A DNA stretch of 53,665 nt from a virus (Duplodnaviria > Caudoviricetes). The stretch lies in IMG/VR virus record IMGVR_UViG_3300043434_000453, positions 1 through 53,665 of that record; one strand, 5' to 3'. Below, piece after piece: positions 45,001 to 51,000 of the stretch (positions are counted from its first letter, which is position 1; every line of letters begins with the position of its first letter). A program made the position numbers.

Positions 45001-48000
45001 CCTTTCGGCGCAATCGCCATGCGTGTTGGTTGCGGTCGCCGGATTCGAACCGGGCCTTCGGCTTATGAGGCCAACGTGCTGCCGTTACACTACCCCGCGC
45101 CACGAATCTTAGCCAACGCCTCCGGCATGTCAACAGCATCGGCCTTGCCATCCTCCATCCCGCGCCGGTAGGCCCACTCGACCACATGGGCCAGCGCAGC
45201 ATCCATCCGCCAGCGGGTTGGATCCTTCGCCAGGTGCTCAGCGAAGATGCGGCGGGCGTCGTTCAGGTCTAGGCTCATCCATCGATCCTTGCGCGGATGG
45301 CTGCGGCGCACCCGGCCGCGCCAGCTTCCATTGATTCGTATGGTTGTCGGTCGAACACAGAGTAGTCAGCCGCGTGTCTGTCACACACCTTCGCGCATTC
45401 CTCGCGCTCATGCGCGGCAACCAAAGCGGCGAAGCGTTCAAGTTGATTTGGTGCCAGTGAGTACGCCCATGTTTCTGTAGCATGGTAAGTCTGAGCATCT
45501 CTCGCCAGTGCGAGGATTTCTTCTCGGGTCATTTCATCTCCTTTCCAATCTCCGCAGTAGCGCGAACAATCGCTCGGCGAGTGGCGGCGTAGGGGTCAAA
45601 TGAATCCATAGTCTCTTTAACGCCATACATCCCGTTGCCTGCAAAAACATCGTTGCGCCTGATGTTTAACGCTAAGCCCAATTTCACCGCCAGCCGCAGT
45701 GCATCGCCATCGTCGGTGAGGGGGTTCCATAGCAAACACTCAATATCCAACGGTCCATCATCTACCCACCCTACAATATCAATCCCCGCCGCCTTCGCAG
45801 CCAGTTCAAGCAGTTCTCTATCGGTCATACATCCTCCGGTTTCGGTGCTGCGGCGAGCATGGCTTCCCATGCTGCTCTGAGATTACTGAAGCCTTCCAAA
45901 TGCCGGTTGCCTTCATGCAGCATGTGATACGTCGGCTCAACCGGCACAAGCTGCCAGCCTTCCGGGACTAACGTTGGGTGGAGGTAGAGCGGAACCATTT
46001 TCCCGAGCGGTAAAGCGTCCACCCATTCCTGCGGCAACTGGTTCCCGTCAACCGGACAAAGCTGCCCACGGAACACCGCATCGATTATGTTGTTGCTGGA
46101 GTTTCTGATAAGCCCGCCCACCGGCTCTTGCTCCGGCTGGGCCATGGCTTCCTTGAGATCGGCGATCAACTCTTGCTTTCTGTTGTAGTGTGTAACGCCG
46201 CTATCAAGGTATTCCAGCGCCATCTCAGCGGCTTTTCTGAAATCGCTCATTACATATCCTCGCAGTCGATTGGGCTGTTTGATGGAAAATCGATGTCATC
46301 GAGCAGACTGCCAGTCCCACCCATAGGCGGGTAGCTCGGGAATGCGCGGCGCTGCTGTGCGCGGCTCATGATCGACCAGATTCCCATCAGGTCACCGTGC
46401 CGCCAATCGTCCTCGACCGAGTTTTTGAAGTTGTCGTAGGCAATTTCGTTCAGCCGGCGAGACAGGACGGCAGATACCACGTTCCTGGGCAGCACTGCCC
46501 GGAAGCGGTAATCCGCGATCGGCGTCTCCATCACGATCACGTCCTTGCCGAACACCCGCTCGATGTCGCCGGCGAACCGGGCGCGCACCAGCAGCTTCTT
46601 CTTGTCGTGCCGGTGAGCGACCACGGACAAGAATGCATCACTCATATACAGCCACATCTCACACCTTCTTTCTGCCGGCGACCGGCTTATCCAGGGTTCC
46701 GAACTTGATGCCCAGGCCTTCCTCGATCCGGCGGGCGACCTTCTCGCTAAACGGCAGGCGGAAAAGCTGGCTCACCCAGGACTGGGAGAAACCGATCTTG
46801 GCCGCCATGGCCGAAATGCCACCGATGGTCGCGGCTTGCTCGCGCAGGTTCGCGCGGCGCGTCTCGTAGATGCTGATCAGGTATTGCTCGTGGTCCATCA
46901 CCTCCTCGCTTCTATCATGGCTTTTCTTTCATTTGTTGTGCTCGGATCAGGCGCGATTCTGCCGCCCATTCGCGCACGTCTTCCTTGATGTTGGTGCCAG
47001 CGACCCAGCACACGCCTAAGTCCCGGATCGCCATGAATAGCCCGCCGCACTCCTCGCACAATACCCACGAGGCCAGCGGCACCTCATCACCCTCGCCGTA
47101 TATACGCTCCTCGATATCGTTGCGCGGGTAGCGGTAGCGTTCCAGTTCCACAATATCCTCGCCGGGTCGCACCAGGCGCTTGCACGAGCAGCACCTGTGA
47201 GCGCGCTTCGTGGCCAGTGGCTTGAAATCCAACGGCTCGGCGTAGGTGTAGACCCACCCGTCGCCGTCCCAGTCGCCGCAGCTGCATGAGATGCTCATCG
47301 CGCCACCAGCAGGCCGATTGCGAAGCACAGCATCACGACCACGAACACCAGTCCGTCCTTGCTGCTGCGGAAACTCACGTCATGGCCGAATGCCTGCCGG
47401 CCGGTACGCGGTGCGGGGATCCCGAACTTGAAGTTGCTGTGGACCCCGCCGATATGCCAAGTGTGTTTCGAGCTCATTCGTACCTCCGCAGCATTCCGCG
47501 CACATCCACCTGCGGCATCGGATCTTCCGGCGGGAGGATGAGGATCGTAGGCGGGCCGTCCAGGTCTTCTTCGCTGTTGCGACGGGCGGCGACCAGCATC
47601 GCGCCGATGGCCAGGCCCAGGACGATGCCTACCAAGAGGGTGAACCAGGTCTGGAGGCTCCACAGTGCGTTGATGATTTCGGTCATGTTCTGCTCCTTTT
47701 AGCCGTAGCCGGAGCCGTCGCCGTAGCCGTAGCCGTCGCCGTCGCCGTAGCCGTAGCCGTAGCCGGAGCCGTAGCCGTAGCCGTAGCCGTAGCCGTCGCC
47801 GTCGCCGTAGCCGTAGCCGTCGCCGTCGCCGTAGCGGTAGCCGTCGCCGTAGCCGTAGCCGTAGCCGTAGCCGGAGCCGGAGCCGGAGCCGGAGCCGGAG
47901 CCGTAGCCGGAGCCGGAGCCGTAGCCGGAGCCGGAGTTGATTACTTCGCCCATACCTTCACGCCCGCGATAGACTCTCGCGCCTTGTCGGTGATGGGGAT

Positions 48001-51000
48001 GATCTCAATAGCATCGGTGAGCAGAATTTCATTCACCGGACACGGGAACTTGCAGTTTTCCGGCTTGCTCGTCCCCTCCATAGCCAGTTGCGAGAGCGTG
48101 GCCGCGCCGTCCCAATACCAAACACGGCGGGCATTGGTGAGTACGACTTCCTTGCCGTCACGCGATTTCAATGTTCCTACGTGAACGCCCGCGCTGTAGG
48201 TGCGGACCAGTACGTCTTTTCCAATCATTTGCTTCTCCTTTGGTTGAGTAGTGCGGGCTTTCCACCCGCTCGGGCTTTGCGGCGGCCTTGTCTTCTCCGG
48301 CTTGTTGACTGCACGCATGCGCAACGAATAACCGGCCTACGGCCCCCATCGGACTACCCTCGCGGGCTGGGGACTGCCGTTCTCTCCGTGCGGCCCACCT
48401 TGGAGATCAGGCGGAGGAGCCGAAAGCGAAAGACTCCGGGCCTTACTGCGCAGATCAGGGTATTTCGTTGTTGACGGTTCCATTATTAGAAAATGCTGAC
48501 GGGATAGCTATTAGAATTTTTTTATACCCGGTAAAGTGTTTACTTATACCCCGCCACAGGTAAGAAATTACGGGTTGTTTCCACTTGTGGGCGTGCCTAC
48601 TCTCGCCGCAACTTTCCACGAGGGTTGGTCGCATGCAGGCGTTCGAGATTTTCCGGGCTGGTCGGCAGACGAGTTCAGCCGGTACGACTATCGAGTTCGG
48701 CGAGGACCAGCTACGTGCTGCCGTCGAGGCATACGACCCTGCCATCCATGAGGCTCCCATCGTCGTCGGGCACCCGAAGGACAACGGGCCGGCCTACGGC
48801 TGGATCAAGGCCCTGTCCTATGCAGATGGAAAGGTGACCGCCGAGCCCATCCAGGTTGACGAGGCATTCTCCGAGATGGTTCAAGCAGGGCGCTTCAAGA
48901 AGCGTTCGGCCAGTTTCTACACTCCTGACAGCCCGCATAACCCGAAGCCAGGCGTGTTCTACCTGCGCCATGTCGGCTTCCTGGGCGCGCAGCCGCCGGC
49001 GGTGAAGGGCTTGAAGGACGTTTCCTTCGCCGATGCCGAGGAAGGCATCGTGGAGTTCTCGGATTCCTACCTGCTGGCCGGCCTGTTCCGGCGCATGCGG
49101 GAGTTTTTCATCAGCAAGTTTTCGATTGATGACGCCAATGCGGTGCTTCCGGACTGGATCATCAGCGATATGGAGGCGGAGGCTCGACGTGAAGCCGAGG
49201 CCAGTCAACCGGCGGCAGCGATGCCAGCCTTCAATGAAGGAGACAGCAACATGGATTTCAAAGAGCAGTACGAGGCAGAAAAGGCCAAGGCTGAAGCCGA
49301 GAAGGCGCGCGCCGATGGGCTGCAAGCAAAGCTCGATCAGCAGACCGCCGATTTCGCTGAACGCGAGAAGCAGATCACCCGCAAGGAAATCGAAGCCCAG
49401 GTCGATGCCCTGGTAGCCGCCGGCAAGGTGCTGCCCGCGAAGAAGGCCGGCATGGTCGATTTCGCCATGCAACTCGACGCTGGCACCGCTTCAGTCGATT
49501 TCACCGAGGGCGACAAGACCGAGAAGGTCACGATGCGCGAAGCCTATCTGCATCAGATCGCCGCTGGCCCCGTGCTGGTGCACTACGGCGAGCACTCCGC
49601 CGACGATGGCGAGCGAGGCGGGGACAAGAAGTCCGTCGCGCAGCTCAACGCCGAACTGACTGCTCAAGTCTCCGGCGCGAAGAAGTAAACCATATCCACC
49701 AAGGAGACTGAACCATGCCTACTTTTACCGAACCCTTCCGCCCCTATGAGGTGCTGCTGTCCGAGGCACCTGGTACCCTGTCCCGCGAATCCGTGACTAT
49801 CGCTTCCGGCGCAGGCGCACTGACCGCCGGCACTGTACTCGGCAAGATCACCAAAGGCGCTGCGACTGCCGCGCACGTTGCCGGTGGTACTGGCAATAGC
49901 ACCTTCTCGGCGGTCACTGTTGGCGCCGACTCCAAGGTCGGCGTGTATCAACTGATCTGGACGGCCGCGACCAAAGTCAACGTCGAGGATCCCGATGGCG
50001 TCCTGCTCGGCGTAGCCACTCTGGGCTCCGCGTTTAGCGGCGGCGGCCTGACCTTCACCATCACCGCAGGCGGCACCCCGCACGTTGCCACCGACCGCGC
50101 GACTATCACTGTTGCGGCTGGCTCTGGCAATTACGCCAGCTATGACAACACTGCCGCGAACGGCACTGAAGTCGCTGCCGCCGTGTTGCTCCAGGCTGTG
50201 GACGCCACATCTGCCTCCGTCGCGGCCGTCGCCATTGTGCGGCTTGGCGAGGTCAAGGACGAGGCACTTCAGTGGCACGCCAACAACAACGCAGGCGCCA
50301 AGACAGCCGGCAAGGCCGACCTGGCTCTGGCCAACATCATCGCCCGCTAATCGCGGACCTGACCACGAAAGGAACCTGAAAAATGGACATCTACCGCGAT
50401 TACTTCACCCGCGAAAACCTGGTGGCCGCTGTCGCCAAGGCGCCCTATGTACCCGGCCGCCTGGGCGAGATTGGCCTGTTCGAGACCAGAGGCCTGACCA
50501 GCACCACGCTGGCTGCCGAGGAAATGGCGCTGAATGACGTCACCCCGTCTTCCGCTATCCCTCGTGGCGCCCCGGCTCCCGCGATGGGTCTGGACAAGCG
50601 CAAGGTGCACACCTTCGCGGCCGCGACCTATGCCAAGCAGATGGCCGTGTTCGCTGACGAAGTGCTGAACGTCCGCGCGGCTGGCACGAATGGCGCCGCC
50701 GAGGTCATCGAAACCCGCCGCAACGAAGCCGCTGCAAAGCTGCGCCGCTGGGCCGATGCCGTGCACGAGAACCTGCGCATGACCACGCTGTTGTCGCCCG
50801 ACAATGCCTTCGGCAGCAAGCCCGGCGATGGCTCGCTCGCGCTGACGAACAACGCCACCAAGACTCGCGCCGAGATCTTCACCAAGGTCATCAAGCCGCT
50901 GGAGACCGCCCTGGCCGGTATCGGCTTTTCCGGTGTGCATGTGCTGTGTTCGGATTCGTTCTGGACCGACCTGATCGAGAACCAGGCGATCAAGGACACC

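Follow-up and report, generated by a model that had tools for sequence, protein, structure and literature searches.

Known systems and the DUF6948-Gly-X gene pair

Proteins of the Sm, LSm and Hfq type have an N-terminal alpha-helix before strand 1 of their barrel and an Arg-Gly-Asp/Asn signature in the Sm2 motif. Several carry low-complexity tails, which are of the Arg-Gly type in eukaryotic SmD1, SmD3, SmB and LSm4, Gly-rich with 'GGFGGQ' in Acinetobacter Hfq and acidic in Escherichia coli Hfq, where the C-terminal tail acts in cis, gating the RNA-binding surface or competing for it like a nucleic acid. Low-complexity domains with [G/S]Y[G/S] motifs are known from the FET family (FUS/EWS/TAF15), along with YG/FG hydrogel domains, and the FUS-type prion-like domain is uncharged and rich in Gln, Ser and Asn. 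In the crystalline repeat of the silk fibroin heavy chain every second residue is Gly, and the residue in between (X) is mainly Ala or Ser. Finally, two-component multivalent condensates, engineered or natural, are formed for example by SH3 repeats with repeats of a proline-rich motif. Here, we analyze a pair of overlapping genes in a virus of the Caudoviricetes (IMG/VR record IMGVR_UViG_3300043434_000453), a complete virus record of 53,665 bp that was used at its full length and is referred to as the window. The first gene encodes a DUF6948 protein and the second a protein in which Gly alternates with Tyr, Ser or Asp, hereafter the Gly-X protein. The pair has the following features:

47941-48228, minus strand: DUF6948 gene, 95 aa (ATG at 48228-48226, stop codon at 47943-47941)
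48235-48240, minus strand: Shine-Dalgarno sequence AAGGAG of the DUF6948 gene, with GGAG 6 nt before the ATG
47699-47953, minus strand: (Gly-X)n protein gene, 84 aa, with a homologous open reading frame (ORF) at the same place in 126 of 130 assessable loci
47941-47953, minus strand: 13-nt overlap junction between both genes (ATGG...TAA)
47700-47933: hexanucleotide tandem array, with the unit TAGCCG on the plus strand and GGC-NNC on the coding strand (Tandem Repeats Finder, TRF)

Like the tailed Sm/LSm/Hfq proteins, the pair brings together a predicted Sm-type barrel and a glycine-rich, repetitive and most likely disordered polypeptide. Unlike in those proteins, the phage tail is a separate, overlapping gene with strict dipeptide alternation, acidic and Tyr-rich rather than Arg-rich, and the DUF6948 barrel lacks the N-terminal helix, contains a conserved insertion of 28 residues and has no LSM/Hfq sequence match. 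The resemblance to FET domains lies in closely spaced Tyr 'stickers' (20 in the 84 residues) that are separated by Gly/Ser spacers, and in a composition that is kept while order and length vary. All 20 Tyr of the 77-residue tract are flanked by Gly except beside its single Arg, giving the tract a [G/S]Y[G/S] density of the FET kind. It differs from FET domains in being bacterial-viral, about 80 aa long and a strict dipeptide repeat without Gln, Asn or Pro, in which acidic residues take up about a quarter of the non-Gly positions, and from the uncharged FUS-type domain in having no Gln/Asn, eight Asp and a net charge of -8. Silk fibroin shares the Gly alternation but not the residues in between, which in the phage protein are Tyr, Ser and Asp; the window tract contains no Ala. 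The likeness to the SH3/proline-rich condensates would be one of working only, namely a small folded module and a repetitive chain that are encoded, and probably made, together.

Co-occurrence of the two genes

IMG/VR was searched with the window protein, yielding 60 loci, and a collection of genomes (one per species) was searched with the family alignment, yielding 201 relatives of which the best 80 were examined. The presence of a Gly-X ORF directly behind DUF6948 is distributed over both sets as follows:

Viral contigs and window: 61 loci, 3 with too little DNA behind the gene, 58 assessable, 56 with a Gly-X ORF
Genome contigs: 80 loci, 8 with too little DNA behind the gene, 72 assessable, 70 with a Gly-X ORF
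Both sets: 141 loci, 11 with too little DNA behind the gene, 130 assessable, 126 with a Gly-X ORF

A script called 124 of these pairs, and the loci L023 and L105 were added from the printed frames. A preliminary description of the window, made from its sequence alone, had staked its proposal on the co-occurrence of the two genes, and they do co-occur. The comparison indicates that both genes are real and that their pairing is far beyond chance.

The same pair, in the same order and with the same Gly-Tyr/Ser/Asp composition, is present in the cultured phages NK-7, Ymer and phiPLPE, whose DUF6948 proteins are 44-58% identical to that of the window. In Ralstonia phage NK-7 the pair consists of XCO36016 (DUF6948) and XCO36015, which bears the GenBank name 'fibroin heavy chain-like protein'; in contrast to the window, the NK-7 genes do not overlap. 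The pair corresponds to CDS0033/0032 in Pectobacterium phage Ymer. Iodobacter phage phiPLPE (EU876853) encodes DUF6948 as gp84, followed by an unannotated ORF of 81 Gly-Tyr/Asp/Ser codons (1164-1409 of locus L145). This ORF coincides with a published (KMGCCG)35 repeat at 46,046-46,255, which Comeau et al. 2012 (PMC3391216) included among DNA repeats with the speculation that it serves for attachment, and tblastn places DUF6948 immediately upstream of the repeat, at 46,289-46,552 on the minus strand. A misread frame was found in Chlorobiaceae phage CV-1-33 (MT192033, locus L003). Its annotated gene_25 (coding sequence 3286-3531) reads as Ala-Met/Ala-Leu repeats in the wrong frame, and the Gly-X ORF at 3270-3527 is open and follows DUF6948 with the usual 13-nt overlap. 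Our literature searches returned no publication describing DUF6948 or the DUF6948-Gly-X pair, and none of the listed matches for phage Gly-Tyr repeats was relevant by title or abstract.

Organization of the overlap and of the hexamer array

The preliminary description had proposed a 95-aa protein with a strong ribosome-binding site and an overlapping 84-aa protein of G-Y, G-S and G-D dipeptides, and both ORFs were recovered as described. The start codon of the window DUF6948 is consistent with that of 37 relatives (alignment A1). The Gly-X gene starts in the -1 frame, within the final four codons plus stop codon of DUF6948 (window junction: ...gtATGggcgaagTAA). The overlap measures exactly 13 nt in 96 of the 124 script-called pairs. 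Across 90 distinct junctions, ATGG is near-invariant, with the ATG lying over a conserved DUF6948 Trp codon three codons before the stop, and the stop codon itself varies (TAA in 41, TAG in 35 and TGA in 14). Since the Gly-X ATG is located inside the last codons of DUF6948, translation of both genes is probably coupled, and the arrangement points to coupling through the overlapping start and stop rather than through frameshifting. A programmed -1 frameshift that would fuse both proteins is unlikely, a slippery heptamer being present in 3 of the 90 junctions.

The window Gly-X protein starts with a lead of seven residues (MGEVINS), followed by a tract of 77 residues (G38 Y20 S10 D8 R1), and has a net charge of -8 and a pI of 4.1. 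Each residue of the tract is encoded by a single codon, specifically GGC (38/38), TAC (20/20), TCC (10/10) and GAC (8/8). TRF describes the underlying array as 39 copies with 90% matches and no indels, and it is the only array in the window with a score of at least 80. The repeat can be read without a stop codon in five of the six frames; an open frame by itself is therefore no evidence of a gene, and the evidence has to be comparative.

Short-read contigs covering 47300-48700 (DNA runs X1, X2, X3 and X5, from three freshwater studies) all end at 47696 or 47943, at the borders of the array, and are therefore uninformative on repeat-length variation. As the repeat breaks assemblies, the module will be under-recovered in metagenomes. 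Among RNA runs, none was listed as containing 45000-49700 of the window. Two near-identical loci, L033 (3267-3587) and L032 (3267-3533), differ inside the repeat, where L033 passes through a run of Arg-Val dipeptides in a shifted frame and then returns to Gly-X; this run stems from an error of assembly or else from genuine slippage.

Selection on the Gly-X polypeptide and the domain fused behind it

The codons used in the repeat differ among loci (GGC, GGT, GGG or GGA for Gly; TAC or TAT for Tyr; TCC or TCT for Ser; GAC or GAT for Asp), even within one closely related clade, with one codon per residue within a locus. The residues are the same throughout: of the 1684 non-Gly positions in 49 parsed tracts, 1550 (92%) carry Ser, Tyr or Asp, and aliphatic residues, Pro, Lys and Arg are nearly absent, as is Ala (11/1684). 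The tracts of 83 non-identical pairs range from 25 to 155 residues in length, within narrow proportions of acidic (median fraction 0.24), aromatic (0.32) and Ser residues (0.36), and aromatic and acidic residues are both present in all 83. Proteins that consist of Gly-X only (n = 88) have a median length of 77.5 aa, a median net charge of -8 and a median pI of 4.1.

A conserved domain of 153 aa follows in frame behind the repeat in the clade of loci L048-L063 and in loci from Firmicutes and Bacteroidaceae bins. Because ribosomes must traverse the repeat to produce this domain, selection acts on the polypeptide. Its presence in a large clade also argues strongly that the Gly-X frame is translated, as the preliminary description had supposed. 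Taken together with the codon differences, the comparison indicates that it is the amino-acid pattern, and not the DNA, that is under selection, with the repeat DNA probably being homogenised locally by slippage.

The domain is an uncatalogued family with 1285 representatives at E ≤ 0.001. Among the top 150 representatives, 103 have a Gly-X N-terminus, 14 contain few such motifs and 33 none, many of the latter being truncated calls. In a close-relative search for the fused domain, the relatives listed all had at least 80% identity. An invariant W-H-x-x-L-T-G-S-C-x-x-G-R motif was observed in the domain (L050 3594-4052 and relatives; alignments A4 and A5). The structural model is confident, with a predicted local distance difference test (pLDDT) value of 97.0. 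The domain has no Pfam, PHROG family or PDB sequence match, and fold searches with Foldseek (best E 0.11) and VIA-align (best Z 5.3) gave no fold match. Weak partial matches to substructures resembling uS5 or double-stranded RNA-binding domains have Z values of 3.5-5.0, below the noise level of the tool.

DUF6948 is an atypical Sm/LSm-like barrel by structure prediction

The 95-aa protein belongs to Pfam family PF22253 (DUF6948), matching profile positions 1-85 of 85 (E 5.3e-34; 116.6 bits versus a cut-off of 27), and a search of the whole record identified its gene as the sole DUF6948 gene (116 bits). An AlphaFold2 model based on a 38-sequence alignment has a pLDDT of 97.3 and a predicted template modelling score of 0.86. 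It comprises five strands and helices at residues 45-51 and 81-88, and the strands form a strongly bent, five-stranded antiparallel beta-barrel, which is the hallmark of the Sm fold. The Foldseek matches listed for this model are Sm/LSm entries, two of them at E ≤ 0.001 (6ppn_H, E 3.7e-4; 1i8f_G, E 9.8e-4). VIA-align, which is independent of Foldseek, returned Sm/LSm or Lsm-complex chains in rows 1-16, for example 6ppv_A (Z 8.0, root-mean-square deviation 2.0, 62 residues aligned). The fold matches include LSm domains that bind proteins, namely those of EDC3, LSM14, Gemin6/7 and NatC Naa38. The small Sm-like barrel anticipated in the preliminary description is thus supported by two structure comparisons of the predicted model.

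Several observations weigh against an ordinary Sm protein. The VIA-align values (Z 8.0-6.6) are middling; according to the tool's own warning, unrelated chains commonly have Z < 8 as well. The model begins at the strand formed by residues 5-10, and the N-terminal helix of Sm proteins is absent from it. In a Pfam scan of the 95-aa protein at E ≤ 0.1, neither LSM nor Hfq was matched, DUF6948 alone being returned, and a profile search of PDB sequences with DUF6948 gave no matches at E ≤ 1. The invariant or near-invariant residues (R9, Y11, G14, R34, W37, W39, G41, A42, A43, Q47, G52 and K60) cluster around a family-specific insertion of 28 residues (37-64) between strands 3 and 4, and not in the barrel strands. 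The absent helix, the lack of a sequence match and the conserved insertion count against simple membership of the Sm family, and on the predicted model DUF6948 is a small Sm/LSm-like barrel of an atypical kind.

DUF6948 is mildly basic, with a median net charge of +2 and a median pI of 8.5 (pI > 7.5 in 82 of 112). A search for longer DUF6948 proteins found ten, with varied N-terminal extensions and PF22253 as their only family. Longer forms (P0276-P0283; L029 2917-3279; L044 2905-3270) were observed to share the motif I-x-I-D-G-x-x-Y-V about 20-30 residues before the barrel. In P0282, a single ORF encodes a Gly-X tract first and then DUF6948, and the N-terminus of P0278 is a Gly-Leu/Gly-Thr dipeptide repeat, perhaps another frame of a Gly-X tract; the two forms suggest tandem modules. 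A search of the ESM Atlas gave no usable match.

A cassette independent of its neighbors

Thirteen proteins encoded next to the pair in the window, among them a 70-aa membrane protein, a helix-turn-helix (HTH) protein, the MuF-like protein and the head protease, were searched for in the 140 other loci (tblastn, E ≤ 1e-5, within 3-4 kb of DUF6948). None of the 13 had a relative there, and DUF6948 itself matched 140 of 140 loci in the same test. None of the 13 protein-coding neighbors tested thus travels with the pair. By these comparisons, the pair is a widespread, mobile cassette, independent of its neighboring genes and of the stretch described as its leader (see below).

A random sample of 150 was drawn from 565 neighboring ORFs of at least 100 aa within 2.5 kb of the pair in 112 non-identical loci. 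Most of these have no Pfam match, and those that do are early, replication, recombination and lysogeny genes: SSB (3), AAA_24 (3), HTH_3 (3), DnaB_C (2), DNA methylase (2), Peptidase_S24 (2), ERF (2) and, once each, integrase, RecT, YqaJ and RusA. CI-like repressors also occur in the neighborhood of the pair elsewhere. We rejected a reading of the Gly-X protein as the precursor of a ribosomally synthesized and post-translationally modified peptide, since no radical-SAM, YcaO or lanthipeptide-type family is present among the 25 most frequent of the 54 neighbor Pfam families. By eye, the gene behind the pair in L032 (3574-3852) and L033 (3625-3903) has the look of a cold-shock gene of the CspA type.

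The bins of the genome matches are labeled as Proteobacteria, Bacillota, Bacteroidota, Cyanobacteria, Planctomycetota, Acidobacteriota, Spirochaetota, candidate phyla and archaea, a breadth of phyla to be read as an upper bound. Across these bins, DUF6948 is 56-75% identical to the window protein (best 80 of 201 relatives).

The accessory island, the putative leader and the tRNA-like RNA

In the window, the pair is located at the head of an inverted accessory island, on the strand opposite to that of the head genes:

44810-48575, minus strand: inverted accessory island headed by the DUF6948-Gly-X pair and flanked by the MuF-like and head protease genes
40503-44429: MuF-like head gene
48585-49688: head protease gene
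46659-46901: HTH protein of the island, with PHROG transcriptional regulator matches
45529-45870: phrog_5086 protein of the island
48229-48470, minus strand: 5' untranslated or intergenic stretch described earlier as a leader, no demonstrable part of the module
45031-45098, minus strand: tRNA-like RNA (Rfam tRNA, 43.7 bits versus a cut-off of 29)

Several orphan genes are also located within the island. None of the island genes (HTH protein, phrog_5086 protein, orphans) recurs beside DUF6948 elsewhere.

The preliminary description had interpreted the stretch in front of DUF6948 as a structured multi-hairpin leader of about 220 nt. Its minimum free energy (48215-48470, minus strand) is -85.8 kcal/mol, compared to -90.4 ± 4.6 kcal/mol for dinucleotide shuffles (z = +1.01), and 170 of 200 shuffles gave a fold of equal or greater stability. 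Aligned with the upstream regions of five relatives whose DUF6948 is 74-89% identical, the stretch has only the Shine-Dalgarno GGAG in common, the columns of which are invariant in the alignment of all six regions, with no other part aligning. No Rfam family reached its gathering score in the stretch, and a promoter scan of 48229-48700 on the minus strand returned no sigma-70-like site. Given the shuffle test, the lack of conservation, the lack of an Rfam match and the lack of a promoter-like site, the leader is not a demonstrable element, and this part of the preliminary description was abandoned.

The tRNA-like RNA, which had been placed at the end of the same transcript direction as the pair, exists, but it lies 2.6 kb downstream and a promoter-like site of its own (TTGACA-16-TAAGAT, 45133-45106, minus strand) is located directly upstream of it. 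With this site, it is probably an aberrant, separately transcribed tRNA-like RNA, and its proposed link to the pair is not supported. ARAGORN called no tRNA at 45031-45098 on the minus strand.

Proposed function of the pair and alternative explanations

We consider the description given above, namely a widespread cassette of an atypical Sm/LSm-like barrel and a Gly-X protein selected for its amino-acid pattern, as nearly certain. That both proteins are made and work together is, we infer, probable. How they would do so is much more tentative, and even the mechanism that we prefer is less likely than not. In it, a conserved surface of the LSm-like protein, rich in Arg, Trp and Tyr, would bind 'stickers' on the Gly-X chain, namely its Tyr and Asp residues. 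Provided that the barrel oligomerises like Sm proteins do, the two multivalent partners could form an assembly resembling a gel or condensate at an early stage of infection, and in phages having a domain fused behind the repeat, this domain might be carried as cargo of the assembly. A phage-encoded partner of near-constant composition would explain the conservation of DUF6948 at 56-75% identity across bins of many phyla. For the whole explanation, i.e., the description together with the preferred mechanism, we estimate a probability of about 0.5. A stricter version is unlikely. In it, the pair would be a minimal, self-contained phage condensate or gel system, in which LSm-like oligomers would act as the hub for a (Gly-Tyr/Asp/Ser)n polymer of stickers and spacers; both would be produced together to form a membrane-less compartment inside the infected bacterium, with fused domains or bound nucleic acids as its cargo.

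A number of points weigh against this explanation. The DUF6948 protein may work alone, as indicated by loci without an intact Gly-X ORF: the Gly-X ORF is missing from L021 and from L060, whose DUF6948 is fused to a different C-terminus, L144 has a remnant of 16 codons and L070 a degenerate Gly-rich ORF. The searches were pattern-seeded and favor conserved DUF6948 members, and metagenome bin labels are unreliable for the host, which makes the phylum breadth an upper bound. The charges of the two proteins are inversely correlated (rho -0.30, p 0.005, n = 83), yet weakly so, and the figure is corrected neither for relatedness nor for the five tests made. A prediction of the heterocomplex from the DUF6948 alignment (A1) and the Gly-X alignment (A3) scored 0.00 in a run without controls, and speaks neither for nor against binding.

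The pair can also be read as an RNA chaperone of the Hfq/LSm type, in which a DUF6948 ring would bind phage or host RNA and the acidic Gly-X protein would gate the RNA surface in trans. Such a ribonucleoprotein reading is possible, without being the default, and we regard it as rather unlikely. It agrees with the Sm/LSm fold, with the pairing of a mildly basic DUF6948 and a strongly acidic partner, with a conservation across bins of many phyla that fits a universal ligand such as RNA, and with the cold-shock-type look of the gene behind the pair in L032 and L033. It is opposed by the missing LSM/Hfq family match and N-terminal Sm helix, by the location of the conserved residues from W37 to K60 in the family-specific insertion and by a turn between strands 4 and 5 that has no Arg-Gly-Asp/Asn motif of Sm2. 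Moreover, LSm domains such as those of EDC3, LSM14, Gemin6/7 and NatC Naa38 are also pure protein binders, and the proposed RNA leader is not real. The strong acidity of the chain (net charge -8, pI 4.1) also fits an anti-defense or host-takeover decoy, an acidic, aromatic chain that mimics nucleic acid or baits a host defense protein, with DUF6948 as its chaperone or adaptor. Its place in the window, first in an inverted accessory island that is flanked by head genes, and its behavior as a mobile cassette independent of neighbors make the pair fit this reading as well. However, a host-defense target would predict divergence along with the host, whereas DUF6948 is 56-75% identical across the many-phyla bins; elsewhere the pair is situated amid replication and recombination genes and not in recognised anti-defense islands, and no neighbor in the window island is linked to it, so that a decoy appears quite unlikely.

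Two further explanations concern the repeat itself. It might matter as DNA or RNA, with the Gly-X frame as a by-product, and could then be a site of attachment or recombination, a contingency tract prone to slippage or an array for binding. The open frames (five of six), the near-perfect hexamer array and a repeat length that varies widely among close relatives are in line with this, as is the attachment site speculated for the (KMGCCG)35 repeat of phiPLPE (PMC3391216). We nevertheless consider it highly improbable: the hexamer is not conserved, the third codon positions differing by lineage with no change in the residues; the start of the Gly-X frame is always at a fixed place and its stop just after the tract; X is confined to Ser, Tyr and Asp (92%); and in a large clade the conserved folded domain continues in the same frame. 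Still less probable is a silk-like or virion-associated fiber, for which the Gly-X chain would stack in fibroin-type beta-sheets and contribute to the particle or to an extracellular or adhesive structure. The strict Gly alternation of fibroin crystalline repeats, the 'fibroin heavy chain-like' name given by GenBank annotators to the NK-7 homologue and the location of the pair between head genes in the window all recall such a fiber. Yet the pair lies on the strand opposite to the head genes and in early regions of other phages, its 24% of acidic residues and near absence of Ala (11/1684) are unlike fibroin, and by eye no signal peptide is seen in the 7-residue N-terminus.

The preferred reading of the pair as an LSm-like barrel with a sticker-bearing Gly-X partner, if true, would make it a very small natural two-component system of an Sm-type barrel and a Tyr-rich low-complexity polymer, a combination best known from eukaryotic RNA granules. 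On the stricter version, a eukaryote-style low-complexity device for phase separation would exist in phages from bins of many bacterial phyla. DUF6948 is unusually well conserved for an early phage gene, and the Gly-X ORF behind it is often unannotated or annotated in the wrong frame, as in phiPLPE and CV-1-33. Since the module is present in cultured phages, its function is directly testable.

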